This document shows positions 9,386 to 64,000 of a stretch of 64,000 bases of DNA, in pieces; the stretch's first letter is position 1; every line of letters begins with the position of its first letter. The stretch is from Verrucomicrobiota bacterium (lineage in GTDB: Bacteria; Verrucomicrobiota; Verrucomicrobiia; Limisphaerales; Palsa-1400). The stretch is taken from contig JBEKYR010000001.1 in the NCBI GenBank assembly GCA_049510745.1, forward strand, positions 64,001 to 128,000. Direction: 5' to 3'. Made by a program: the position numbers and the translations under genes. Below the pieces are notes generated by a model, which was not told where the DNA came from, searched no databases, and saw nothing but the letters and a program-made list of their open reading frames with translations.

Positions 9386-9940
9386 ATGAGCGAGATCACC
9401 CAAGTCCTGCTGTCACGGCCGGGTGACGGTTGTGATTCGGAGGAGTTGCTGCCGCTGGTCTATGACGACCTTCGCCGGATGGCGGCGGCGCGAATGGCGG
9501 GCGAAGCGGGGGGGCAAACGTTGCAGCCCACGGCCCTGGTTCATGAAGCGTGGATGCGGATTTTTGGGAACGGCGACCGGCGCTGGCAGGATCGCGGACA
9601 CTTTTTCGGCGAGGCGGCCGAGGCGATGCGGCGGATACTGATTGAACGCGCCCGGCGCAAATCCCGGCTCAAGCGCGGCTACGGATGGGTGCGGTTGGAC
9701 ATGGAAGGTCTGGCATTGGCGGAGGCGACGCCGGATGACAAGGTGCTGCTGATCAATGAGGCGCTGGAACGGCTGGAGGCGGAGGATCCGCAGCGGGCGA
9801 AGGTGGTGGTGATGAAGTTTTTCGGCGGACTGACAAACCAGGAGGTGGCCAAGAGCCTGGGCGTGGCCGAACGGACCATCGAGCGCCAATGGGCTTATGC
9901 CAAGGCCTGGTTGTTCCGGAGCATTCGCGAGCAGATGTAA
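9386..9940 (+). CDS. ECF sigma factor of the kinase-associated PVC type (TIGR02999-like)
   Basis: ELLPLVYDDLRRMA, TLQPTALVHEAW, AMRRILIERAR, FFGGLT..EVA..LGV..RT..RQW.YAKAWL. Confidence 0.93.
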   Translation: MSEITQVLLSRPGDGCDSEELLPLVYDDLRRMAAARMAGEAGGQTLQPTALVHEAWMRIFGNGDRRWQDRGHFFGEAAEAMRRILIERARRKSRLKRGYGWVRLDMEGLALAEATPDDKVLLINEALERLEAEDPQRAKVVVMKFFGGLTNQEVAKSLGVAERTIERQWAYAKAWLFRSIREQM

Positions 9941-9964
9941 TTTGACAGCAACCCACGCGGCGCC

Positions 9965-12211
9965 ATGCATGACACGCTTTCACGCGAAGAAGAGGTGTTC
10001 GACGCGGCGCGAAAACTGAGCGACTCCGCGCAACGGGAAGAATTTCTGGAGCGGGCGTGCGCGAATGATTCCGACCTGCGGGAGAGAGTGGAAAAATTGC
10101 TCTCCGTCCACAGCCACGCCGAGGAGTTGTTTACCGAGTGCCTGACCGCGTTGCGCTCCTCCGCCGATGCTCCCGAATCCCCGGCGGCGGCGCGGGGGCT
10201 TGAAGAAGAACAGCCGGGGACGCGCATCGGGCCTTATAGAATCCTGCAAAAGATCGGCGAAGGCGGTTGCGGGGCCGTTTACATGGCGGAACAGGAGAAG
10301 CCGATGCGCCGTCTGGTGGCGCTGAAGGTCATCAAACTGGGCATGGACACGCGGGCGGTCATTGCGCGCTTTGATGCCGAGCGCCAGGCGCTGGCGATGA
10401 TGGACCATCCGAACATTGCCAAAGTCCTGGACGCGGGCGCGACCGAGACGGGCCGTCCGTTCTTTGTCATGGAACTGGTGCGCGGGACCCGGATCACGGA
10501 GTATTGCGATCAGAACCAGTTGGATACGCGCCACCGGCTGGAGTTGTTCATCCAGATTTGCCATGCCATTCAGCACGCGCACCAGAAAGGGATCATTCAT
10601 CGCGACATCAAGCCGTCGAACATCATTGTGACGCTGCATGACGGCCTGCCGGTGCCGAAGGTGATAGATTTTGGAATCGCCAAAGCGACGGAGGCGCCGC
10701 TGACGGACAAGACGCTTCTGACGACGCAGAATCAATTCATCGGAACGCCCGCTTACATGAGTCCCGAGCAAGCCGGAACGGGCGGGCTGGACATTGACAC
10801 GCGCAGCGACATTTACAGCCTGGGCGTGCTGCTCTACGAATTGCTGACGGGCAAAACTCCCTTCGACCCGAAGACGCTGGTCCAGTCGGGGGTGGAGGAG
10901 ATGCGCCGCACGTTGCAGGAAGAGGAACCGCAACGGCCTTCCGCCCTGTTGACGGTCCTGGGCGGCAACGAACTGACCCTGACCGCCGCGCGGCGCCACG
11001 CTGAACCGCCCCGATTGATTGCGCTCATGCGCGGCGATCTGGACTGGATTGTCATGAAGGCATTGGAAAAGGAGCGCGCGCGCCGTTATGAAACGGCCAA
11101 CGGATTGGCCATGGATATCCAGCGGCACCTGGGCAACGAGCCGGTGCTGGCCCGTCCGCCCAGCCGAATCTATCGGCTGCAAAAGCTGATGCGGCGGAAC
11201 AAGGTTGTTTTTGTGGCGGCGGCCGCCGTGTCCGCCGCCTTGATCGCGGGGCTGGGCACCTCGACGTGGCTCTTTCTGAAAGAGAGAGAGGCCCGCCAGC
11301 GGGCCGTCGCGGCGGAACGCCAGCAGGCCCGCCTGGCTCAGGAGGCGGAACTGGCCCGTTCCAATGAAGCCAAGTTGCGCCGTCAAGCCGAAGCCCGCGA
11401 GAGGATCACGCAGGCGGAAGTCCTGGTCAGCCAGGACAGATTTGAGGAAGCCGACAAGATGGTCAGCGAGTCGTCTCCGACGGAGCCGAGTGTGGAAGGG
11501 GCGGCGCTGCTGCGTTCCTTGAGTGAGCGGCACGCCCTCCAGGGCCACTGGACCCAGGCGGCGGATCGCTTTGGCTTGCTGCTGCAACTCAACCAACTGG
11601 ACGGGTGGGATGTCGGCACGATGGATTTTCTCGGATGCGGGGTCTGCCTGATTGAGAGCGGCGACGCCGAGCATTACGATTGGTTTCGCCAGGCGGCCCT
11701 GTCTCGATTCGCGTCCACTCCCAACGGCGTTGCCGCGGAACGAATCATCAAGATTTGCCTCTTAAAAGCTCCGAGCCAAGGCGTTCTGGAGTCTTTTGCT
11801 CCACTGGCGCGCGTGGCCGAGGGATCTTTCAGCACGGTGGACAGCCATGATGCGGAGGCGGTTTTTCGAGCGGCCTGGGGATCGGTTTCTCTGGCGCTCT
11901 GGGAGTATCGTCAGGGCCACTATGCCAGGAGCATCGAGTGGGCCAGACGCTGCCTGGCCTTTCCCGAGTCCAACGCGCCCAGAGCGGCGGCGGCCCACGT
12001 CGAACTGGCCCTGGCTTTGCGCCAGACCGGGCAGAGGGACGAAGCGCTCCGAGAACTCAGCCAGGGCCGTCAATCCATCGAAGACGAATTCAATGGGAGC
12101 CTGGAAGCGGGGAGCGCCGTGCAGGGTTTCTGGTTCGATTGGGTCTTCGCCCGCATCCTGTTGCGGGAAGCCACGGACCAGATCGACCCGCGCCCATCCG
12201 TCTCTCCTTAA
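9965..12211 (+). CDS. Hanks-type Ser/Thr protein kinase with hydrophobic segment and helical/TPR-like C-terminus
   Basis: IGEGGCGAVY, VALK, HRDIKPSN, DFG, GTPAYMSPEQ, DIYSLG; hydrophobic stretch after KLMRRNK. Confidence 0.95.
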   Translation: MHDTLSREEEVFDAARKLSDSAQREEFLERACANDSDLRERVEKLLSVHSHAEELFTECLTALRSSADAPESPAAARGLEEEQPGTRIGPYRILQKIGEGGCGAVYMAEQEKPMRRLVALKVIKLGMDTRAVIARFDAERQALAMMDHPNIAKVLDAGATETGRPFFVMELVRGTRITEYCDQNQLDTRHRLELFIQICHAIQHAHQKGIIHRDIKPSNIIVTLHDGLPVPKVIDFGIAKATEAPLTDKTLLTTQNQFIGTPAYMSPEQAGTGGLDIDTRSDIYSLGVLLYELLTGKTPFDPKTLVQSGVEEMRRTLQEEEPQRPSALLTVLGGNELTLTAARRHAEPPRLIALMRGDLDWIVMKALEKERARRYETANGLAMDIQRHLGNEPVLARPPSRIYRLQKLMRRNKVVFVAAAAVSAALIAGLGTSTWLFLKEREARQRAVAAERQQARLAQEAELARSNEAKLRRQAEARERITQAEVLVSQDRFEEADKMVSESSPTEPSVEGAALLRSLSERHALQGHWTQAADRFGLLLQLNQLDGWDVGTMDFLGCGVCLIESGDAEHYDWFRQAALSRFASTPNGVAAERIIKICLLKAPSQGVLESFAPLARVAEGSFSTVDSHDAEAVFRAAWGSVSLALWEYRQGHYARSIEWARRCLAFPESNAPRAAAAHVELALALRQTGQRDEALRELSQGRQSIEDEFNGSLEAGSAVQGFWFDWVFARILLREATDQIDPRPSVSP

Positions 12212-12588: not shown

Positions 12589-15432
12589 ATGAGAAAAAAT
12601 CTAAACACCGGGTATCGGATGATTTTTTGGAGTTGTGCGGGGCTTCTGGCAGCGCAACTGACAGCCTCGGCGCAAACGCTGGCGCACGAATACAGCTTTT
12701 TTACGGCGACCAACGGCACGACCAATGCTGTCGATCTGGTCGGGGGCGCGAACGGAACGCTCGTCGGCACCATAACCAACACCGGGATTACCGGGGGCCG
12801 TATGTTCTTCGATGGCACCTCGTATGTGGTGCTGCCGGCCGGCATCATCACCAACGACCTGGCGGTGACGGTCGAAGCCTGGGCGGACTACGCCTCTCTT
12901 AGTGATCAAGGCCTTTGGGCGAATCTTTTCGACTTCGGCACGCAGGATGCCGCCGTCAATGATTCGTACAGCATTTCCTTCTGTGTGAATACCAGCGCCC
13001 ATGTCCTTGATGCCGCCATTTCGGATTACGACAACGCCAACGTGAGCCGCGAGAATTGCGCCTCGTTAGCGAACCCCCTCGACGGCGCGACCGGCGCGTA
13101 TATCGCGACCGTGTTTGATCCTCCCGATGGTTTCATTGCTCTTTACGTCAACGGCGTCCTCAACACGAAACTTCCCATTATCAGCACGATCACGCCCGGC
13201 GTCCGAGATCTCAACAATGAGCTCGGCGCGGACAATTGGAATGACCCAAAACTGAGCGCCTATCTCTACGAGTTCCGCATTTGGAACGGCGCCCTCAATG
13301 GCCTTGAAGTGGCGGCCAGTTGCGAGAACGGCTACTCTGGCGGCATTAATACCAATGCCGGCGCCATCACGAGCCTCCAATTGTCGGCAGGCGCCCAAGT
13401 GGTTCAAGGAGGCCAGGAGCCTTCGACGGTGCTGGCCACGGCATCATTGATCACTAACGACGTCGATGTGACGTCGCTTTGCACCTATTCATCCGGCAAC
13501 ACGAACAAGATCACGGTTGATTCCAAAGGCGGGATCCACGGCGTTGGGATCGGTTCCGCCTTGATCACCGCGAGTTACGGAGGCCAGAGCAACTCGATCA
13601 CGGTCACTGTGGTCGAGCCGGTTTCGATTCTCACCCACCGCTACAGCTTCAACGACGCCCAAAACACGCCAAACGCCATGGTCACCGACTCTGTCGGCAC
13701 ACTCAACGGAAACCTGATGGGAACCGCTTATGAAACCAACGGGCAGGCTGTGCTGGATGGCACCGCCGGCTGCTATGTGGACTTAAGCTCAAATTTGTAT
13801 TCCACCGATGGCATGATTTCCGGCTATCAGTCCGCGACGATTGACTACTGGGCTACGTTTGGAACCCTGGGCAACTGGAATTACGCTTGGGTCATGGGCA
13901 ACTCCACTTCAGGTACCTCCGGTGTTAACTACGTTCATCAAGTGGTTCGCGACGGCAACACGTCACATGAGATTGACGAAACGGGCGCGGGTTTTGCCAT
14001 GCTCGGGACCTTTGCCAATGAGACGGTCCACTGCACCACTGTCATGGATGCGCCCGAAGGCCGCATGGCTCTGTACACCAACGGCGTTCTCAGCGGCGTA
14101 ATCACGAATGATTTTGTGCCGCTCAGCACCATCGCCACCAATTTCGCTTGGATTGGCCGTTCGCTCTGGTATGTCTACGATCCTTATGTAAGCGCGAGCT
14201 TCGACGAGTTCCGTGTTTACAACGGGACGCTGACTCCTCAGCAAATCGCCCTGGCCGACGCGCTGGGGCCAAACAACACTAACCTCGTGGTCGGCGCCCT
14301 GCAATCGATCCAGGTTTCCATCCCGACATTGAACCTGGGAGATGCCATCATTGGCCCCGTGCTGGCCAACTATGGCAATTTGACCAACTACAATCTGACG
14401 GGGAACAGCCCGATCCCGCTGTTCATCTTTACCTCGAGCAACTCCAACGTTGTCTATCAAGCCGCCGATGGGAAGCTCCACGCGGTCGGCCGGGGCACTG
14501 CCACGGTCACGGCCACTTACGGGGGTTTCGTGAGCAGCCAGGTGGTGAGTGTGGTGCATAGTCCCGTTCTGGTTAACCGCTACAGCTTCCAGGACGCCAT
14601 CGGCAGCACCACTGTCGCCGACACGGTGGGCGGCACGAATTGGAACGGCACTTTGCCCAACGGTGGCACTTTCACGGGCACCAACCTGCAATTGAGCCAG
14701 CAATGGGTCCAACTCCCGTCGGGAATCCTTAGCAATTACCCCGCCGTGAGCATCGACCTATGGGCCACGTTCCCTGATGCGTTGCCGGCCAACTGCTTCT
14801 TATTCGGTTTCGGCAACACAGATTCCGGCGGCGCCGGGGAGAACTACATCTTCTGCCAACCCGAGGGCGGACGCATTGCCATCTGCGGCGTTGACCCTGG
14901 CTGGACGGGCGAACAAGGCACTGGCGGCGCTAGGAACTTCAGCTTGCAGACCAACCTCCATGTCACGGCGGTATTCGATCCGCCGGCGGGCTTGGAGAGC
15001 TTTTATACGAATGGCGTCCTGGCTTCGCAGATCACCACGGTGACGGTTCCGATGGCTTTCGTGCAAAGCGTGAGTAACTACCTCGGCCGTTCGCTCTACA
15101 CTGCTGACTCCTACATAGACGTGTACTTCAACGAGTTCCGCATCTACAACGGCGCGTTGACTCCCGCTGAAGTGGCAGCCAGCCAGATTCTGGGGCCGTC
15201 CGCGCTGCTCACCACCGGCACAGAAAGCCTGACCGTCTCGGCCTCGGGTGGCAACGTGGTGATTTCGTGGCCGGCTGCGTTGGCGGATGGTTTCTCGCTC
15301 TATTCGAGCAGCACCCTCGGGCCGAACGCCGCGTGGACGCTGGTGAGCGCGACACCCACGATCGTCGGTCAAAACATTCAAGTGTCCGTCCCGACCAGCG
15401 GCACGGCGAAGTTCTACGTGCTGAAGAGGTGA
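12589..15432 (+). CDS. Secreted protein: 3 LamG/ConA-like lectin domains + 2 Ig-like (BIG_2) domains + C-terminal F-[YF]-x-L domain
   Basis: Signal peptide; three LxxxYSF...EFR[IV][WY]NGxL units; two SS.N....V...G..HxVG.G.A..TA.YGG units; ends TAKFYVLKR. Confidence 0.88.
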   Translation: MRKNLNTGYRMIFWSCAGLLAAQLTASAQTLAHEYSFFTATNGTTNAVDLVGGANGTLVGTITNTGITGGRMFFDGTSYVVLPAGIITNDLAVTVEAWADYASLSDQGLWANLFDFGTQDAAVNDSYSISFCVNTSAHVLDAAISDYDNANVSRENCASLANPLDGATGAYIATVFDPPDGFIALYVNGVLNTKLPIISTITPGVRDLNNELGADNWNDPKLSAYLYEFRIWNGALNGLEVAASCENGYSGGINTNAGAITSLQLSAGAQVVQGGQEPSTVLATASLITNDVDVTSLCTYSSGNTNKITVDSKGGIHGVGIGSALITASYGGQSNSITVTVVEPVSILTHRYSFNDAQNTPNAMVTDSVGTLNGNLMGTAYETNGQAVLDGTAGCYVDLSSNLYSTDGMISGYQSATIDYWATFGTLGNWNYAWVMGNSTSGTSGVNYVHQVVRDGNTSHEIDETGAGFAMLGTFANETVHCTTVMDAPEGRMALYTNGVLSGVITNDFVPLSTIATNFAWIGRSLWYVYDPYVSASFDEFRVYNGTLTPQQIALADALGPNNTNLVVGALQSIQVSIPTLNLGDAIIGPVLANYGNLTNYNLTGNSPIPLFIFTSSNSNVVYQAADGKLHAVGRGTATVTATYGGFVSSQVVSVVHSPVLVNRYSFQDAIGSTTVADTVGGTNWNGTLPNGGTFTGTNLQLSQQWVQLPSGILSNYPAVSIDLWATFPDALPANCFLFGFGNTDSGGAGENYIFCQPEGGRIAICGVDPGWTGEQGTGGARNFSLQTNLHVTAVFDPPAGLESFYTNGVLASQITTVTVPMAFVQSVSNYLGRSLYTADSYIDVYFNEFRIYNGALTPAEVAASQILGPSALLTTGTESLTVSASGGNVVISWPAALADGFSLYSSSTLGPNAAWTLVSATPTIVGQNIQVSVPTSGTAKFYVLKR

Positions 15433-18244: not shown

Positions 18245-20452
18245 ATGAAGAAAATGACGATAAGCAAAAAACTGTGTTATCTGGCGTTTGTTGGCTTGGC
18301 GCTGTGTTTGAGTCACCGTGTTTCAGCGCAGGATGACCACTGGAATGGCACGACAAGCAACAATCTGTGGAACAACCCGGCGAACTGGAGTGAAGGCATA
18401 GTGCCGCCCAACGATACGAATGCGGTTCCCCCTTACCCCTGCGGCGGCGGGACATATTTTCGAGGCAACGTGTGGCTTGATCCCGCAAATGGAGATACCG
18501 TGATAACAATTCCCCCAGGGGACATTGAAGCTCCCGGCGTCCCAGTATGCGGTGAAGGGGATAACTATGCGTTTAATACGATTTTTGGCCCGGAGTTCGG
18601 ACTCACTCTCAACATCTACGGCTCGTTGAGCTTCGCCTGGACAATTGCCCCGTATTCGCCCGATCCCGCGGCGCGCAGCATTATCAATATGTTTACCAAT
18701 TCCTCCATGTCCACTGACGGCGCCTCTCTCAATCTCGGTGATGGCTGGTGGCCGATAGCGGAGGGGTGTTATGTGACGATGAACATGTACGACAACGCCC
18801 AATACAGCAGTCTTGGCGGAGCCGGATGGTGGTGGGGGGGTCATTTGAATATCTATGACAATGCGAGTTTCTTTATCAATGGGTACGTCAACTTTGGTGA
18901 TGTCTCGAATCCTAATTGGTCCCAATCTGACGGCACAAGGTCGCTTGTTCTCGGCGGCGGCACGTTGACCCTGCCGGAAGGCAGCATTACCGACACCAAT
19001 GCGGGAAAAGTCTTTGATTGGGTGGGAAGAGGCATGCTTCGAGCCTATGGCAAGGGGGAGGATACGAACGACCTTATTGCCACTGACAATACCACCAACA
19101 CGATCGTGACGGTTGTGCCTTTGGGCGGCGCCCTGGAACGTGTTTATTTCCAACCCTTGCTCAAGACTAATGTGCCCCTGGGCACGTTCCAACAGTTGGT
19201 GCTGGTCGGCGATTACCCGGCGGTCACGGGAGTCTATTTGAGTTCGTCGGAACCGGGTTTGAACCCGGCGTCGTTTCCCAAGCCGGTTTACACATCGAGC
19301 AATCCCAATGCGGTCACGGTGAATGCCGTCGGCGTTGCCACCGCCGTCGCTCCAGGCAGCGCCACGGTGAGCGCCACGGTCGGCGCGTTCACCAGCACCA
19401 ACACGGTGACGATTACCGTCTCGGATAACCCACCGAGCCTGATCCACCGCTACAGCTTTACCAACAGTTCGGGCACCAACGTGGCGGACTTGGTGGGCGG
19501 CACGAATTATACGGCCCAGCTCGTTGGCGGCGCCACTTTGGGCGGAGGACAGGTCACGCTGGATGGTTCAACGGGCTATGTGCAATTGCCGGCCGGAATT
19601 CTGGGCGGCTTGGACGAGGTCACGATCGAGACTTGGGCCAGCTTTGGCAGTCCCATCAATCATTTTGCGAATCTCTTCTGTTTTGGATATGCGGATCAAA
19701 CTGGGGCAAACAATGGGAGTGGAGCCGATTACATTAATGTCCAGTTGGACTACGCAGGAAATCCAACCACACAGTTGGACTTCGGCCAGGGTATCCCCGG
19801 CAACACGGGTGAACGGGATGCCGTGGCAAACACGGCTCTGGATGGAAAGACCAATGTGCAGGTCGTTGCCGTCTATCATCCGTATGCAGGCTACGAGTCG
19901 CTCTATATCAATGGCGCGCTTGCCGCGACTCAGACGATGTTCAACAACATGTCTGATCCAGTGGCTTTTGCCGGTCCTACCTACAACAGTGGAAGCATTC
20001 TGGCCTACACGCTCGGCGCGCAGGCGATTTTTGACGGCGCGGCCGGACCGACCCCGAACAATTATATCGGTTGGGATGTCTATCAAGGAACCAATGGTCT
20101 TATGCTTCCAGGGATTGCTGGCGCAGACCCGTCTCTCAATGGTTCGGTTGCTGAGTTTCGCATTTACAGCAGCCCGCTGACGGCCGCTCAGATCAAGGCC
20201 GACTACGCCCTCGGCCCCAATCAACTCATCGGTGCGAACACGCATGTGACGCTGACCGCGACGCTCTCGGGCGGCAACATAGTGATCAGTTGGCCGACGA
20301 GTTCCGCCTACGTGACCTTGGTGTCCAGCCCGGTGCTGGGGGCCGGCGCCGTGTGGACGCCGGTGAGCAGCGGCACGCTGGCGGTTGTCGGCGCCAATTA
20401 CCAGGAAACCATTGCAATTACAGGTTCCACCCAGTTCTTCGGACTGGAGTAA
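18245..20452 (+). CDS. Secreted protein: beta-rich N-terminal region + BIG_2 + LamG domain + C-terminal F-[YF]-x-L domain
   Basis: Signal peptide; WNG...WNNPANWS; YTSSNPNAVTV..G.ATAV..G.ATVSA; LIHRYSF...EFRIYSSPL; ends STQFFGLE. Confidence 0.85.
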   Translation: MKKMTISKKLCYLAFVGLALCLSHRVSAQDDHWNGTTSNNLWNNPANWSEGIVPPNDTNAVPPYPCGGGTYFRGNVWLDPANGDTVITIPPGDIEAPGVPVCGEGDNYAFNTIFGPEFGLTLNIYGSLSFAWTIAPYSPDPAARSIINMFTNSSMSTDGASLNLGDGWWPIAEGCYVTMNMYDNAQYSSLGGAGWWWGGHLNIYDNASFFINGYVNFGDVSNPNWSQSDGTRSLVLGGGTLTLPEGSITDTNAGKVFDWVGRGMLRAYGKGEDTNDLIATDNTTNTIVTVVPLGGALERVYFQPLLKTNVPLGTFQQLVLVGDYPAVTGVYLSSSEPGLNPASFPKPVYTSSNPNAVTVNAVGVATAVAPGSATVSATVGAFTSTNTVTITVSDNPPSLIHRYSFTNSSGTNVADLVGGTNYTAQLVGGATLGGGQVTLDGSTGYVQLPAGILGGLDEVTIETWASFGSPINHFANLFCFGYADQTGANNGSGADYINVQLDYAGNPTTQLDFGQGIPGNTGERDAVANTALDGKTNVQVVAVYHPYAGYESLYINGALAATQTMFNNMSDPVAFAGPTYNSGSILAYTLGAQAIFDGAAGPTPNNYIGWDVYQGTNGLMLPGIAGADPSLNGSVAEFRIYSSPLTAAQIKADYALGPNQLIGANTHVTLTATLSGGNIVISWPTSSAYVTLVSSPVLGAGAVWTPVSSGTLAVVGANYQETIAITGSTQFFGLE

Positions 20453-20516: not shown

Positions 20517-22946
20517 ATGTTTGCGGTGCCTCGCCTTGTCCTTCTCCTTGCGTTCCTGGGCATCGGGCGCGGCGCGGCGCAGATTCCGTTGCAGGGCGAC
20601 TTTTTTGTTCACGATCCGTCCCCCATGAACAAATGCGACGGGCGCTATTACATCTACTTTACAGGCCAGGACATTCCCTCTATTTCATCGCCGGACAAAA
20701 TCAATTGGGTGGCGGGGCCATCCGCCTTCAACGCCACCAACGCGCCTCTCTGGACCACCAACGCGGTTCCGGGATTCACCGGCTTTTTCTGGGCGCCGGA
20801 CGTGGTCGGTCTCAACGGCGGCTATTACCTTTACTACGCCGTCTCCACTTTCGGCAGCCAGGTGTCCGCCATAGGGCTGGCCACCAATTCCACCCTGGAC
20901 CCGGCGGCGCCCGGTTACCAATGGGTGGACCAGGGGCCGGTCATCCAGTCCGGCAGCGGAGTCAATTACAATGCGATCGATCCCAGTGTGCTTCTGCTGG
21001 CCAACGGCCAGTTGTGGATGTCGTTCGGTTCCTTCTGGAGCGGCATCCAGATGATCCAGCTTGATCCCGTGACCGGCAAACGGATCAGCGCCAATTCCAC
21101 TGTCTATGCCCTGGCCACCCATCCGCCGAGCACGGCCATCGAAGCCTCATGCCTCGCGCAAAATGGCAGTTTCTACTATCTGTTTGTCAACTGGGACACC
21201 TGCTGTTCCGGGGTTGACAGCACCTATAGCATCCGGGTCGGCCGCAGTTCCAGCATCACCGGGCCGTATTTGGACCAGAACGGCGTCAGTATGGCGGCCG
21301 GAGGCGGCACGCTCTTTCTGGAGAGCACGGGACGATTCATCGGCCCCGGCCAGGCGGGCCTGTTGGTTGAGGCGCAGACCAATTGGTTTACTTACCACTA
21401 CTACGACGGCAACAACCACGGCGCCCCGACTCTCGGCCTGGGCCAGATGACTTGGAGCGCCGGCGGCTGGCCGCAATTGACCAATAACTGGTGCGCCTTT
21501 TATCCGTTTGAAGCCAACGCCCAGGAGCATCTCGGCCAGTTTAACGGACAGATGGTCAACGGCGCCTCCATCACCAACGACCCCGATCGCGGCCACACCC
21601 TCCTCCTGGACGGCGTCAGCAACTATGCCTCGCTGCCCTTATCGGCCGCCAACGCCAGCACGTTTGCCATTTGGGCAAAATGGAACGGCGGCGCCGGCTG
21701 GCAGCGCGTCTTCGATTTTGGCGATGGCACCGGCCGCTACCTCTTCTTGACGCCCGCCAATGGAGTCAACGGCCTGCTGCGATTCGCCATTACCACCAAC
21801 GGCAACGGCAATGAACAAATCATCGACGCCCCCATCGCCTTGCCGACAAATTCGTGGTGTCATCTCGCGGTGGTCCTCAACGGCGCGTCGGGCAAGCTTT
21901 ATTTCAACGGCCTTCCCGTTGCCACCAAGAGCAATCTGACCATTCGACCCTGGCAGGTCCAGGCTGCCAGCAATTACCTCGGATTGAGCCAGTTTGCCGC
22001 CGATCCCCATTTCAGCGGGCAACTCGATTCCCTTCGCATTTACGGCATCGCTCTGAGCGACGCGCAAGTCCTGAATGTGGCCGAGGCCCATCCCGGGTTG
22101 GCCCATCGCTACTCTTTTTCCGCCGACGCCACCGACTCCATCGGCGCCGCGGATGGCGCCCTCAGTGGAAACGCGCTCATCGCCGGGAACGCGCTCGTTT
22201 TGGACGGTTCGACGGGAAGCTATGTCAATCTGCCCGGCGGATTGGTCAGCGGATGCACGGCGGCGAGCCTGGAATTCTGGGCCACGTTTGGGGTCAACAG
22301 CAACTGGGCGAGAGTTTTCGACTTTGGCGCGACCAACGGGGCCAGCGGCCAGCAGTTTCTTTTCTTCAGCCCGCACACCGGCGTCAATTCGCAACGCCTG
22401 ACAATCTCCACGTCCACCGCAACCGCCAACCTCGACGTTCCGGGGACGCTCGACGGCGCCGCCGTGCAGGTCGTCTGCATCGTCGATCCCACCAACAATT
22501 ACTGCGCCATTTACACCAATGGGACCCTGGAATCCGCCGCCACCGCCGCCCTGCCGCCTTTGAGCGGCGTCAGTTCGGCCCTTTCCTATCTGGGCCGCTC
22601 TCTTTTTTCCGCCGATGCGTGGCTGACGGGCGCGATCGACGAGTTTCGCATTTATGACGGCCGTCTTTCGCCCCAGCAAATCATGGCCGATTACCAAGGC
22701 GGCCCCAACGGACTGGCCATGCCGGTCAGTCTGGCCGCCTGGGCGTCCGGCCAGACTTTCACCTTGACGTGGCCCTCCTTCGCCGCCGGTTTCCTGCTCG
22801 AATCGGCCCCGGCGCTGGGCGCGGGCGCGCGTTGGAGCGTCGTGACCAACACGGCCAGCATCGCCAACAACACCAATTGGGTCGTGCTTCCCGTTGCCAA
22901 TGCCGCCGCGTTTTTTAGACTGCGCCGGGCGGACGTTGGCAGCTAA
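20517..22946 (+). CDS. Multimodular GH43 arabinanase with two LamG domains and C-terminal FFRL domain
   Basis: VHDPS, FWAPDV, NAIDPS, SFGSFWSGI, AIEAS, CCSGVDSTY; two LamG units; ends AAFFRLRR. Start moved to ATG 20517. Confidence 0.9.
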   Translation: MFAVPRLVLLLAFLGIGRGAAQIPLQGDFFVHDPSPMNKCDGRYYIYFTGQDIPSISSPDKINWVAGPSAFNATNAPLWTTNAVPGFTGFFWAPDVVGLNGGYYLYYAVSTFGSQVSAIGLATNSTLDPAAPGYQWVDQGPVIQSGSGVNYNAIDPSVLLLANGQLWMSFGSFWSGIQMIQLDPVTGKRISANSTVYALATHPPSTAIEASCLAQNGSFYYLFVNWDTCCSGVDSTYSIRVGRSSSITGPYLDQNGVSMAAGGGTLFLESTGRFIGPGQAGLLVEAQTNWFTYHYYDGNNHGAPTLGLGQMTWSAGGWPQLTNNWCAFYPFEANAQEHLGQFNGQMVNGASITNDPDRGHTLLLDGVSNYASLPLSAANASTFAIWAKWNGGAGWQRVFDFGDGTGRYLFLTPANGVNGLLRFAITTNGNGNEQIIDAPIALPTNSWCHLAVVLNGASGKLYFNGLPVATKSNLTIRPWQVQAASNYLGLSQFAADPHFSGQLDSLRIYGIALSDAQVLNVAEAHPGLAHRYSFSADATDSIGAADGALSGNALIAGNALVLDGSTGSYVNLPGGLVSGCTAASLEFWATFGVNSNWARVFDFGATNGASGQQFLFFSPHTGVNSQRLTISTSTATANLDVPGTLDGAAVQVVCIVDPTNNYCAIYTNGTLESAATAALPPLSGVSSALSYLGRSLFSADAWLTGAIDEFRIYDGRLSPQQIMADYQGGPNGLAMPVSLAAWASGQTFTLTWPSFAAGFLLESAPALGAGARWSVVTNTASIANNTNWVVLPVANAAAFFRLRRADVGS

Positions 22947-22954
22947 ACTCCGAT

Positions 22955-23956
22955 ATGACTTCGCCATCCCAAAAACTGGCCGTTGTTGTTCTAAGCCTGG
23001 CTTGCTGCGGCGTTGCCTTCGGCGCGGAGACCAACACGGCCACCAATACGGCGGTCCTCCTGCTTGGCCGGCGCGACGTCTCCGTCCACGACCCATCCAC
23101 CATTGTCCGTTGCAAGGATGAGTACTGGGTTTTCGCCACCGGCCGCGGCCTCGTTTCCCGCCATTCCACCAATTTGACGCATTGGACTCTAGGCCCGCGG
23201 GTTTTCACAAACGCCCCGTCCTGGACCACCAACGCCGTTCCCGGCAATCGCGGCGATTTCTGGGCTCCGGACGTTATCCACCTGGGCAACCGCTACCTCC
23301 TTTACTACGCCGTCTCCACTTGGGGCAAGAACACCTCCGCCATCGGACTGGCGACCAATCGCACCCTGGATCCCGCCGACCCCGATTACGCCTGGGCAGA
23401 TCAGGGACCCGTCATCCAAACCACGGCCACAAGCGACTGCAATGCCATCGATCCGGCGATCACATTGGACACCGGCGGAAAATTGTGGCTCGCCTTCGGC
23501 TCCTTTTGGACCGGCATCAAACTGGTGGAACTCGACCCCACGACCGGCAAACGCCGCGCCACCAATTCTCCCATCTACTCGCTGGCCCACCATGACATGA
23601 TCGAAGCGTCCTATATCTATTGGCGCGACGGTTATTACTATTTGTTCGTCAACTGGGGCCAATGCTGCCGGGGCGTCAAGAGCACCTATAACATTCGCGT
23701 CGGCCGCTGCAAAAAGATCACCGGCCCCTACCTGGACAAGGAGGGGGTCGATCTGCTTCTGGACGGCGGCAGTTTGGTTTTGGGCAGCACTGGGCCGTTC
23801 ATCGGGCCGGGCCACGCGGGCATCATTTCGGCCGGCGGACAGGATTGGTTCAGTTGTCATTTTTATGACGGCACGCGCGAGGGAAATCCGACGCTGGCTC
23901 TCCTTCCCCTCCAATGGGATGCCGCCGGCTGGCCGGTAGTGGGCGCTCCGCACTGA
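22955..23956 (+). CDS. Secreted GH43 endo-1,5-alpha-L-arabinanase
   Basis: VHDPS, FWAPDV, NAIDPA, FGSFWTGI, IEAS, CCRGVKSTY, GPGH. Confidence 0.92.
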   Translation: MTSPSQKLAVVVLSLACCGVAFGAETNTATNTAVLLLGRRDVSVHDPSTIVRCKDEYWVFATGRGLVSRHSTNLTHWTLGPRVFTNAPSWTTNAVPGNRGDFWAPDVIHLGNRYLLYYAVSTWGKNTSAIGLATNRTLDPADPDYAWADQGPVIQTTATSDCNAIDPAITLDTGGKLWLAFGSFWTGIKLVELDPTTGKRRATNSPIYSLAHHDMIEASYIYWRDGYYYLFVNWGQCCRGVKSTYNIRVGRCKKITGPYLDKEGVDLLLDGGSLVLGSTGPFIGPGHAGIISAGGQDWFSCHFYDGTREGNPTLALLPLQWDAAGWPVVGAPH

Positions 23957-58152: not shown

Positions 58153-59280
58153 ATGCGCTTGTTGATCGTGAAATTAAGTGTGGTGGCCGCCCTGTTGACA
58201 GGGCCCTTGGTGGCGCGGTGCGGCGCGCAGGTGACCCTGGTGTGGAACCCGTCGCCCAATCCCAGCGTCGCGGGTTATAATCTTTGCTGGGGCACCAACA
58301 GCGGCGCTTATGTCTTCACCAACACTTACCCCAATACCGAGACAAATGCCACGCTGACAGATTTTCTGCCCAACCAGGCCTATTATTTTGCGGTGGCGGC
58401 ATTTTCGAGCAATGGAGTCGTCAGCCCGTTTTCCAACGAGACGAGCTTTACCAACGGTCCCCCTTCCACAAATTCCCTGGCGTCCACCAATGGCCCGCCA
58501 GCGCCTCCTGGAGGGGGCACACCGGGTTTGCCCGGCACCAACAGCCCCGGACAGGTCAACAATGGCGGCGGCGGCGGTGGCAATTCTTCGCAGGGCAGTT
58601 CCTCCAATTCGGCGGCCAATTTCTGGGGCGTCCCGCCCTTCCTGACGCTGACGTTGTCCAATGGGCTGCCGAATTTGAACATTGGGGGGACGGTAGGGGC
58701 CACGCTGATGATCCAAGCCACGACCAATATCTTTTCCCTCGATAGCTGGGAAACGGTGACCAATGTGGCCCTGACCAACATCGCCCCGATAGCGCAGACC
58801 AATCAGTCGGGCCAGGCGCAGGACGCCCTGGACCTGGCCTTCGTCCCCAGCGCGCAATCCCTTCCGATCACCCCGAGCAATTCGACTCCCTTTCAGTTCT
58901 TCCGCGCCGTCATGCCCTACGATTATGTGATCCTGGCCAGCATGGTGTTGCCGGGCAAGGGCTACACGCCGCGGCTGATTGTGGTCAACATGCCCGGCAT
59001 CGTGTGCGACGACGCTTGCTACGTCAACGAATCGAGCAGCTTCATTCATTACAGCCAGACCAACAGCGCCCTGCAGCTCGAGGGGTCCGGTTCGACGATT
59101 CGGCAGATTGCCACCACCCTGGCCAATTCGCTCACTTTGGACTGGACATCCGCTTCGGAGTTCACTTATTCTAACGGCTTGGGCCAAATACTGGCCACTG
59201 TCGTTGAAACAGAACCGTCATCTTCCGATCCAGTCGCTGGGCAGAACCCGCCCAGCCAGCCGATGGTCATTGACTTTTAG
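58153..59280 (+). CDS. Secreted fibronectin type III domain protein
   Basis: VTLVWNPS....AGY....G..SG.Y, YYFAVAA....S.FSNE; Gly/Pro/Asn linker; internal ...FQFFRAV domain. Confidence 0.82.
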   Translation: MRLLIVKLSVVAALLTGPLVARCGAQVTLVWNPSPNPSVAGYNLCWGTNSGAYVFTNTYPNTETNATLTDFLPNQAYYFAVAAFSSNGVVSPFSNETSFTNGPPSTNSLASTNGPPAPPGGGTPGLPGTNSPGQVNNGGGGGGNSSQGSSSNSAANFWGVPPFLTLTLSNGLPNLNIGGTVGATLMIQATTNIFSLDSWETVTNVALTNIAPIAQTNQSGQAQDALDLAFVPSAQSLPITPSNSTPFQFFRAVMPYDYVILASMVLPGKGYTPRLIVVNMPGIVCDDACYVNESSSFIHYSQTNSALQLEGSGSTIRQIATTLANSLTLDWTSASEFTYSNGLGQILATVVETEPSSSDPVAGQNPPSQPMVIDF

Positions 59281-62137: not shown

Positions 62138-64000
62138 CTACGGTGTGAGCAGTCGATAGAACTTGCTGCCCGTCTGCACCAGGTCCGTGACCACGTATTG
62201 CGTCGCGTTGGTCGGATACGGCGGCGCAATTACGGTCCAGCCGTTGGAGCCGGTTGTCAGGTCGGCCGTCGCTTCGAGCTGCCAATCGGGCGCGGGCTGC
62301 GGCCAGGAGATCACCACCGCGTTGGTCGGCGTGCTTGCGATTGACAACAGCGGCGCGACTGCAATTTGTGAAATGCTCACATCATCCACATACCACGCAT
62401 ACGCCGCGGTATAGACGCTCGAGTAGGCCGAGAAGCGCACCGCAAAATAAGGGCCAGCGGCACTGGCCGGAACCGTGTCTGTATAGGATTGGTATTGAGT
62501 CGAGCCATCGCCAATGATGGTCCGCAGATTCTGCCAGGTAAAGGAACTGGAGTCGAAATACTCGATTATGAACGATTGGCTGGACGGGATTTCGTCGGGG
62601 TTCACCTTGTATTGCACCAGTGCCGCCCCGCTCAACTGCATTGGCAGGGTGCGCACCGTTCCGAGCTTCTGGTTGTAGTTGAAACCCCGGCCAATGTTGA
62701 TCTCCAGATGCTGATACTGGCAGTCAACCTGATCCGCCGCGGTCCATTTGGCCGGGTCCGGCATGGAGCTGTTATTGTTGAAATTATCCGCGAAGGGCAG
62801 TGAGGTCGTCGGTGTCGTCACCGTCCCCGCCGTCAAACAAGCCGCACTCGCCGCGGTGGCGCGAATTCGGGCGATGTTCAAGTCTTCAAACGAGTAATAG
62901 CCGACACTACAGCCGCCCAAGCTGGAGCACATAATGCGACAGCGGGGGTCGCTGTCGTAATCGCAGTGATAGGCGTTAAAACTGTGGCCGATCTCATGGG
63001 CGGAAAGGGCGATGCGCTTGCCCAGATCGGTTTGCGAGCGCGAACAGGCAAAGCTGTAATGATCGAAACCGGGGCATACCTGGTCCTCAATGCTATCGCC
63101 GATGATACTGCCGAAGTTCTTCCCCGTGAACAGATGAGCGATGTCGCGGGGTATGTCCTGATGGTTGTTTATCCAGTCGAGGCGAAACTGAGCCAGCAGC
63201 CCATCCGCTGTCGTTGCGTCGTAGGGGTCGGGCTCAGCCGATCGCACAAGGATCTGTGTGAGTTGAAACGACACCCCGGTATCACGTTCAAAGATCGCCG
63301 AAACGCCGTTGATGATGGTCTCGATGTCCGCGACGGTGTTGCTCACCGAACTCCCGTTCAAAGTGTAATACTCATAGTCGGCGTCGCAGGCGATTTGGCA
63401 TACCAGCACATCCAGGTTCGTCGATTGACCGTTCCTGGGGGTCGCACCGGAATCCTTGGCCATGGGAACATCGTGGTTTCCACAAACTCCGGATTCCCCG
63501 CCCGAATCCTCGGTGTTGTAAACCACATGCTGCCCGGCCGCCGCGTCCGCCAGAACAGTCTGCAGCGGCTCAATCACCCAGGTCGAGTCGTTGGCATCGC
63601 CCAGGCGAACAAACGCGCGTATCCTGCCTTTCGTGAACGAGGCCAGGACGCTGCTCCCCCCACAACCGGCTACATAGCCTCGATAGGTCTGGAAGTCGGG
63701 AGCCGGCACGTCGTGAAATCCCCCGTTACCGTCCTGCACCACCACCCGAAATCCGGGCGCCCGCAGCGAATGTTTCTGCAAGACGATTTGGTGCGGCTGC
63801 CCCGCCAGTTGGAGGCTGAACTTAAGCTCCCCTGACATTTCCACCGACTCCAGATCCTGCAGTGTGAACTTGCCAACATGCAACTGGTCAACCACCCGCT
63901 GCTGCACGACCGAGTCGGCGGGCGCCCTCGTGGAATTGGTTTGGCCGTGACAAGGAAAGAGACTGGCTAATGCAATTAGAGAAGCCCAAAACCCTGGAGA
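62138..64000 (-). CDS. Secreted M12B/reprolysin-like zinc metalloprotease with C-terminal FYRL domain; 5' end outside window
   Basis: HEIGHSFNAYH + IMC Met-turn; the frame stays open to 64000 and encodes a signal-peptide-like segment (FWASLIALASLFPCHGQTN); ends SKFYRLLTP. Confidence 0.9.
   Translation of the reverse strand, partial: SPGFWASLIALASLFPCHGQTNSTRAPADSVVQQRVVDQLHVGKFTLQDLESVEMSGELKFSLQLAGQPHQIVLQKHSLRAPGFRVVVQDGNGGFHDVPAPDFQTYRGYVAGCGGSSVLASFTKGRIRAFVRLGDANDSTWVIEPLQTVLADAAAGQHVVYNTEDSGGESGVCGNHDVPMAKDSGATPRNGQSTNLDVLVCQIACDADYEYYTLNGSSVSNTVADIETIINGVSAIFERDTGVSFQLTQILVRSAEPDPYDATTADGLLAQFRLDWINNHQDIPRDIAHLFTGKNFGSIIGDSIEDQVCPGFDHYSFACSRSQTDLGKRIALSAHEIGHSFNAYHCDYDSDPRCRIMCSSLGGCSVGYYSFEDLNIARIRATAASAACLTAGTVTTPTTSLPFADNFNNNSSMPDPAKWTAADQVDCQYQHLEINIGRGFNYNQKLGTVRTLPMQLSGAALVQYKVNPDEIPSSQSFIIEYFDSSSFTWQNLRTIIGDGSTQYQSYTDTVPASAAGPYFAVRFSAYSSVYTAAYAWYVDDVSISQIAVAPLLSIASTPTNAVVISWPQPAPDWQLEATADLTTGSNGWTVIAPPYPTNATQYVVTDLVQTGSKFYRLLTP

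Follow-up and report, generated by a model that had tools for sequence, protein, structure and literature searches.

A shared C-terminal fibronectin-III-like domain on secreted Verrucomicrobiota proteins: a candidate cargo tag for type II secretion and type IV pilus machines

Why would four secreted proteins of different domain content all end in the same short domain? The question is raised by a 64,000-nucleotide stretch of DNA from a Verrucomicrobiota bacterium (Limisphaerales, Palsa-1400; contig JBEKYR010000001.1, positions 64,001 to 128,000), called here the window, in which four genes end in a common tail. We propose, giving the idea about an even chance, that this tail is a modular cargo tag that would be read by type II secretion and type IV pilus machines. 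The four genes and their tail domains are listed below, together with an adjoining tail-less gene that serves as internal control.

12589..15432, + strand: cargo 1, a LamG protein of 947 aa with signal peptide, three LamG domains, Ig-like domains and tail (Pfam)
15211..15432, + strand: tail domain 1, at the end of the LamG protein, 73 aa and stop; the copy used for folding (HMM, AlphaFold)
18245..20452, + strand: cargo 2, 735 aa, with signal peptide, Big_2, LamG and tail (Pfam)
20234..20452, + strand: tail domain 2, ending at the stop (module 20234-20449; HMM E 1.4e-9)
20517..22946, + strand: cargo 3, 809 aa from the ATG, with signal peptide, GH43 arabinanase-like domain, two LamG domains and tail (Pfam/NCBIfam)
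22713..22946, + strand: tail domain 3, then four extra residues (DVGS) and stop (module 22713-22931; HMM E 5.5e-11)
22955..23956, + strand: internal control, the adjoining signal-peptide GH43 protein without tail (composition)
62138..64000, - strand: cargo 4, the M12 metalloprotease P0151, 629 aa including the signal peptide (Pfam); its start codon lies 27 bases past the window end
62138..62365, - strand: tail domain 4 and stop (module 62141-62365; HMM E 1.7e-11)

A preliminary description of the window had seen a common C-terminal pattern on these four secreted proteins. The pattern is indeed present on all four, and a single hidden Markov model (HMM) family takes them in. The segment that it gave for the first tail, 15226-15432, translates exactly as described; its coordinates for the other three were one or two bases out of frame. 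It had also named five exported enzymes as free of the tail, and these are both tail-less and correctly identified (GH43, GH43, GH51, GH20 and peptidase S13). Per 300 residues, the tail-bearing GH43 domain contains 11 lysine, arginine and glutamate residues (K+R+E) against 30 in its tail-less GH43 neighbour. None of the four tails matched a Pfam or NCBIfam family at E<=1, in line with the earlier statement that the tail is by sequence neither a PEP-CTERM signal nor a C-terminal domain (CTD) of type IX secretion (T9SS).

How widespread is this domain? An HMM built from the four tails alone matched 35 open reading frames (ORFs) across the host genome (coded G000; 5.63 Mb in 85 contigs, 94% complete), all at the C-terminus and none in reversed decoys. 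Iteration converged on 131 domains in 130 ORFs, 126 of them 15 residues or less from the stop, and a more sensitive pass over the 4,329 called genes yielded 167 domains in 164 proteins, with no reversed match in either case. C-terminal copies make up 157 of the 167, and 146 of those 157 end within two residues of the stop. Many matches, nearly all of them C-terminal, are what the preliminary description had expected of an HMM count. The best conserved positions are a proline before strand A (91%), a mid-domain leucine (84%) and a mid-domain tryptophan (96%), followed by the terminal F-Y-R-L motif (87, 70, 77 and 49%). Two to four residues follow this motif in 130 of 158 tails, and the last residue is proline in 88 of the 158, against a background of 12.7%. 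The four tails are thereby confirmed as one family, uncatalogued in Pfam and NCBIfam; literature searches, with subscription journals and supplements outside their coverage, found no description of the domain.

The proteins that carry the tail are, as had also been anticipated, signal-peptide proteins of extracellular-type composition. A crude rule applied to imperfect start calls assigns a signal peptide to 91 of 126 tail proteins versus 1,224 of 2,780 others, and median K+R+E is 4.5% in tail proteins versus 16.6% in the others. Among proteins of at least 300 aa, 202 combine low K+R+E with high asparagine plus threonine, a composition that we take, from general knowledge, to be of extracellular type, and 133 of them bear the tail. 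The tail-less rest includes 10 contig-truncated genes and a second C-terminal family, as well as, by eye, two-partner, flagellar and pilin proteins. The 47 cargo proteins that were scanned are mostly hydrolases (GH29, GH53, GH13, S8, S53, lipase, arylsulfotransferase) or adhesin types with Ig, LRR, NHL, RCC1, FG-GAP or Calx-beta domains; five have no Pfam family at 1e-5. Some cargo carry autotransporter-type PATR repeats and some the NCBIfam 'choice-of-anchor' GloVer repeats. No autotransporter barrel was found in the host genome, in a search whose control was positive. As a side observation from a crude cleavage-site caller, the mature form of tail proteins is most often predicted to begin with glutamine (28 of 79 with a called site, against 60 of 432 others), which recalls the Q-rule of Bacteroidota.

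The fold, which the preliminary description had left to be predicted, comes out of AlphaFold2 (tail 1, 53-row alignment) as a six-stranded sandwich of fibronectin type III (Fn3) type, with pLDDT 90.2 and pTM 0.74 and with the last strand at residues 68-72 of 73. The best structural match is to cytokine-receptor Fn3 domains (6nmy_D, Z 7.1, root-mean-square deviation (rmsd) 2.9, 69 aligned), followed by other Fn3/Ig folds, by the carbohydrate-binding module CBM56 (Z 5.4, rmsd 3.1, 66 aligned) and by the Fn3 domain of PelI (3b4n_A, Z 5.3, rmsd 3.0, 64 aligned); all of these scores lie within the range of a common fold. Among the structural matches listed, the top ones are Fn3/Ig domains at Z 5-7 and no T9SS CTD is named, while Foldseek gave no match at E<=0.001. 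Profile comparison with Fn3 repeats by hhalign (probability 96.7, E 3.2e-10) aligns strands A to F and breaks off at the point where the Fn3 consensus goes on into strand G. This comparison is partly circular, because the tail HMM served to pick the Fn3 set, which comprises 45 repeats taken from four proteins, of which one is confirmed as Pfam fn3. In tandem copies of the tail, strand F joins the next strand A directly; it is therefore the six-stranded unit that repeats, and this unit can exist without a free C-terminus. We thus predict a six-stranded Fn3 sandwich without strand G, in which the missing strand would leave an open sheet edge and the final F-Y-R-L strand would lie two to four residues from the end. 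The tail is homologous to Fn3 (PF00041) over strands A to F and, unlike it, lacks strand G, measures about 73 aa, falls below Pfam detection and is almost always terminal.

A match to a characterised carbohydrate-binding module would have pointed elsewhere. No full-length match to CBM32 or CBM56 was found, which sets the tail apart from both; part of the concern stands, in the form of a weak and partial CBM32 match (E 6e-4, 44 of 76 positions, profile 11-54). Pfam F5/8 did not match the tails, and we read the CBM32 similarity as a shared beta motif rather than family membership.

Named relatives come from Verrucomicrobiota, Limisphaerales, Pedosphaera and Kiritimatiellales records, and the nearest Atlas clusters are mostly Verrucomicrobiota. 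Within the phylum, 86 of 201 genomes gave a match to the tail profile (per-genome counts in this profile being such that 28 means at least 28), and each of five genomes of the order has 62-146 matches. One call, in genome G051, was a CBM32-like false positive and was removed, leaving 85 tail-positive genomes; other single weak matches were accepted as called. In an outgroup phylum, sampled around a Terracidiphilus record, the profile matched 2 of 60 further genomes, with one or two matches each. G261, a record with the title Terracidiphilus, has its tail genes on the short contigs C627, C606, C504 and C692, one of the tails being 94% identical to an LRR-type tail of the host genome, and these contigs are probably mis-binned. 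A figure of 82,867 representative matches was set aside as family size: it overstates the family, since true Fn3 arrays also match.

Is the tail bound to its cargo, or is it exchangeable? For the M12 protease, 120 homologues were compared; of the 20 nearest to it, 19 have the tail at their end (one is partial). More distant homologues end in FlgD_ig in 10 cases (Pfam) and in dockerin-like modules in at least 15 (15 by pattern, more by eye), several of the latter being named Planctomycetota; some others end in further shared modules. A scan of the genome collection with the M12 protein found nothing. As for GH53, 102 of 120 close homologues have the tail and seven look truncated or aberrant. 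A K+R+E shift in tail-less GH53 proteins (8.3%, n=11, versus 7.3%, n=38, these being the rows of the 120 that could be cut by pattern) was given no weight, because the tail-less proteins form essentially one clade. Placement is strictly C-terminal, the cargo is unrelated and the module is exchanged with the terminal modules of other lineages. The tail is thus a terminal module that can be swapped for others; most orthologues retain it, yet it can be lost. A possible counterpart was noticed in the tail-negative genome G045, where a cyclophilin-Ig protein beside gspF (L115:405-2414) ends in another C-terminal domain, with the last residues ALVEVYE, that has no Pfam match; tail-free lineages may use a tag of their own.

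In another explanation the tail has no sorting role: it would be a truncated Fn3 domain of the ordinary kind, used as a terminal cap, as a spacer or for carbohydrate binding and distributed by domain shuffling. The clear homology to Fn3 repeats speaks for it, as do the partial CBM32 match, the CBM56 fold match and the loss of the tail in one GH53 clade. However, 94% of tails are terminal, whereas ordinary Fn3, Ig and LamG domains of the same proteins sit anywhere, and the tail is found on proteases and LRR adhesins besides glycosidases. It is also restricted to a lineage, the CBM32 match spans just 44 positions, and the CBM56 score is of the kind that a common fold gives. We consider this explanation quite improbable.

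Which machine could read such a tag? The host genome encodes four secretin loci, on contigs C14, C37, C22 and C46. C14 holds a complete operon for type II secretion (T2SS), GspE-F-G-H-I-J-K-L-M-C-D, with a two-piece GspD whose ORFs measure 521 and 415 aa (G000:C14:48649-51491). C37 encodes GspE-L-M-D, with GspH-I-J-K on C53. C22 carries a PilN-O-P-secretin operon, and C46 an operon of the Amuc_1098-1101 type, Amuc_1098 being described as an outer-membrane secretin of the PilQ type (PMC4960237). In a quick tree, the C37 GspD falls in one clade (support 96) with the secretins of T2SS from other orders and classes; the operons of these contain GspE-M and D, and among the loci listed no additional conserved gene was seen. 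As a separate observation, the GspD-type secretins in G251:C63 and G236:C3 lie in very long ORFs, 4,276 and 3,901 aa, in which the N-domain is repeated many times.

Tail genes are linked to secretin and type IV filament gene sets, and this link is new. Behind the C22 secretin, after 66 bases, come three coupled tail genes. In other genomes, pilN-pilO-pilP-secretin is followed by a homologue of the first of these, an NHL-propeller protein, in 23 of 30 loci; when 20 loci were extended by 14 kb, the first gene behind was seen to carry the tail in 17, and one to three complete tail genes stand there in a row. The second set is a minor-pilin cassette on C52 with FimT/PilV/W/X-like genes (and weak, below-cut-off matches to Verru_Chthon A, B and D), whose PilX-like end gene occurs in 41 of 41 genomes of the order. 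Twenty such loci were fetched, of which two were truncated and two too short; in all 16 that could be read to the stop, as well as in the host genome, the gene after the PilX-like one encodes a tail-bearing S8-protease giant. This giant has S8, P-domain and LamG domains and no C-terminal beta-propeller, and the NHL repeats of the secretin-linked proteins are N-terminal. The third set is the Amuc_1098-type operon, behind which a tail gene comes first or second in 5 of 5 genomes of the order; at the host C46 locus, the first two such homologues lack the tail. Among 20 Amuc_1098-type loci of other lineages, tail or tail-like genes stand behind four and none behind 16; one of the four has HMM-supported tails nearby and three have giants whose ends are weakly similar (hhalign E 6e-4, probability 29; reversed control E 0.28). 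As a background, the next gene on the same strand bears a tail in 95 of 4,076 cases (2.3%), and a tail gene is the neighbour of 13 of the 49 genes with a prepilin motif, compared with 248 of 4,122 (odds ratio 5.6). Placement behind three type IV filament gene sets is conserved in many related families.

Gene order, precedent and the fact that no other route is evident lead us to infer that a secretin machine would recognise the tail and let the cargo pass through its secretin. The cargo would be exported by Sec, as its signal peptides read from the sequence indicate, and would fold in the periplasm. There a part of the machine, whether the secretin N-domains, a GspC/PilP-like subunit or the pilus tip, would bind the tail, and the machine would then push the cargo through the outer membrane via the secretin pore. 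The lineage-wide GspD-type system would be the first candidate secretin for the bulk of the cargo. The preliminary description had spoken of a translocation or anchoring tag: gene order now supplies candidate machinery, in the form of secretin-containing type IV filament systems, but does not separate export from anchoring.

The distribution of secretins is compatible with this proposal. When the tables are cross-read by hand, a GspD-type secretin is present in 83 of the 85 tail-positive genomes and one of the Amuc_1098 type in 79, and none is without both. Other profiles were set aside. The C14-type T2SS is not required, since 15 of 61 genomes gave no match to its GspK, among them G213, which has 138 tail matches. 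A PilNOP-secretin profile in which 26 of 61 genomes gave no match (E 1e-60) was dropped as partly an artefact, three of the 26 having the operon. The PF03934 (T2SSK) profile over the 201 genomes returned mostly ORFs of 750-850 aa that resemble DNA ligase, missed the GspK of the host itself and was uninformative.

On the other hand, a number of points weigh against a tag read by secretin machines. Secretins are common without tails, the 116 tail-negative genomes having a GspD-type in 77 cases and an Amuc_1098-type in 89, so the profile shows compatibility, not dependence. Two tail-positive genomes, G036 with five C-terminal tails and G063 with one, have no GspD-type secretin. Gene order has its exceptions too: no tail gene follows the PilNOP-secretin in G247, G213, G237 and G251, seven of the 30 other such loci have no tail-gene homologue behind, and eleven Amuc_1098-type loci of other class(es) have no tail gene behind. 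Among the loci listed, no conserved tail gene adjoins the GspD-type operon. The loci were chosen by contig room, partly with the neighbour known, and each operon link is one inherited arrangement, so that they amount to about three to five independent events, not forty. As to the domain itself, 10 of the 167 copies are internal and tandem arrays exist, with eight consecutive copies in P0001; 11 of the 120 GH53 homologues are full-length and keep their signal peptide without having a tail. Finally, all four PilK/GspK-type proteins seem, by eye, to have a last strand of their own, and strand donation of the PilY1 kind has no obvious place here.

Alternatively, the tail would be an anchor, the outer membrane being crossed otherwise and the tail binding a surface polymer, a scaffold protein or pili in the manner of dockerin and cohesin. 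Planctomycete M12 homologues hold dockerin-like modules in the very slot of the tail, arrays of up to eight copies fit avidity better than a one-time signal, and adjacency to pilin genes is equally compatible with pilus decoration. Moreover, small proteins made of a signal peptide and a tail lie behind two of three apparently trimeric, C-terminally self-cleaving fibres (by eye). Nevertheless, the same slot also holds FlgD_ig, which is regarded as a secretion signal in T9SS-bearing lineages. Proteins of 100-400 kDa require a second-step route, and the genome has revealed no autotransporter barrel. No scaffold candidate was identified, and 10 internal copies out of 167 are few for a binding module. 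We regard an anchoring role as rather unlikely, if by no means negligible.

A parallel can be drawn with T9SS, the CTDs of which are given as about 80 aa (PMC7712824). Like these CTDs (TIGR04183/PF18962, TIGR04131), the tail has about 70-80 aa, lies at the extreme C-terminus, is restricted to a lineage and is carried by many unrelated signal-peptide cargo per genome; on M12 homologues it fills the same slot as FlgD_ig. Unlike them, it matches neither TIGR04183/PF18962 nor TIGR04131, derives from Fn3, ends in F-Y-R-L-x-x-P and occurs in tandem. One could therefore imagine a dedicated and as yet unrecognised translocon, analogous to T9SS, with the pilus link concerning only a few specialised cargo. 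Such a view draws on the close parallel in size, position and many-to-one use and on the fact that neither secretin type strictly tracks the tail, and a partner could have been missed. Yet no match to SprA, PorP/SprF or a type A CTD was found in the host genome, in searches whose control genomes were also silent and on a genome 94% complete, and a rough heuristic beta-barrel scan showed no obvious barrel of SprA size. We hold a translocon of this kind to be improbable.

For a tag read by secretin machines, precedents of several sorts exist. In PelI, a loop in the Fn3 domain is reported as a T2SS signal that contacts GspC and GspD (PMC7949064). The tail resembles the signal of PelI/Pel3 (Dickeya, Pectobacterium) in being an Fn3-type domain, recognition by GspC/GspD being a feature of PelI; the PelI signal is N-terminal, protein-specific and a composite set of loops, unlike the tail, a shared C-terminal module on more than 100 proteins. 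The host genome encodes a complete T2SS, at C14, in addition to the dispersed C37/C53 set. GlyGly-CTERM and MYXO-CTERM proteins are reported to need the T2SS to reach the surface (10.1101/2023.06.07.544157). With these and with PEP-CTERM, the tail has in common that it is a shared C-terminal tag. Unlike in these three, its alignment shows neither a transmembrane helix nor a basic cluster nor a signature motif. A dedicated processing protease was not identified for it; two exosortases and two separate PEP-CTERM-like proteins are present in the host genome.

The S8 giant invites comparison with PilY1/PilC, its place matching that of PilY1 in type IVa pilus operons. Both are large exported proteins, the giant coming right after fimT/pilV/pilW/pilX-like genes and having a beta-strand at its extreme C-terminus. 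PilY1 is described as docking through its last ten or so residues, which complete the sheet of PilK (PMC13533445). Unlike PilY1/PilC, the giant ends in a folded domain shared with about 160 other proteins and has no C-terminal propeller, and, unlike PilK, its PilX-like partner appears by eye to keep its own last strand. Since proteins of the PilK type seem here to end in a strand of their own, we do not claim strand donation as in PilY1.

A bolder version, possible though somewhat doubtful in our eyes, is that Verrucomicrobiota evolved a portable T2SS/type IV pilus signal, a strand-trimmed Fn3 domain that would dock more than 100 enzymes and adhesins per genome to a secretin or a pilus tip and would perhaps load enzymes onto pili. 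If this were true, the T2SS family would gain a detachable tag of a kind so far known only for T9SS. In the account of PMC7949064, the signals of T2SS substrates are believed to be diffuse and structural only; with a tag that is shared and can be exchanged, T2SS recognition would become directly open to deletion and fusion tests, and such a tag could serve in secretion engineering. The tail HMM marks about 7% of the coding capacity of the host genome (114,228 of 1,606,287 residues, for the first 126 proteins) as probable exoproteome. Verrucomicrobiota are major polysaccharide degraders, and the literature found gives no account of the way in which their very large enzymes and adhesins cross the outer membrane.

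Several minor observations accompany this family. A second shared C-terminal domain of about 300 aa, ending in G-G-[YF]-F...L-x-P, occurs on about ten large exported proteins, among others those encoded at G000:C46:27914-32203, C24:35734-53103, C20:24342-31610 and C8:159336-166857; in the one protein scanned, no Pfam match covers that part. On one conserved gene behind the host Amuc_1098-type secretin, this domain replaces the tail. Two small proteins, encoded at G000:C3:149724-150170 and C39:12027-12491, consist of a signal peptide, some 55 residues and a tail, and such proteins follow two of three large proteins with apparently self-cleaving C-terminal chaperone domains (by eye); here the tail is possibly supplied in trans. 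Within the window, the gene at 58153-59280 on the + strand encodes an exported fn3 protein in which a divergent segment resembling the tail, spotted by eye and not detected by the HMM, lies internally, with about 120 further residues after it. Lastly, an ECF sigma factor and a Ser/Thr kinase-TPR protein are encoded as a pair immediately upstream of the LamG cluster (9386-12211, + strand), and similar pairs adjoin tail genes in loci L026 and L027 of genome G071, which suggests that these pairs and the adjoining tail genes share a common regulation.

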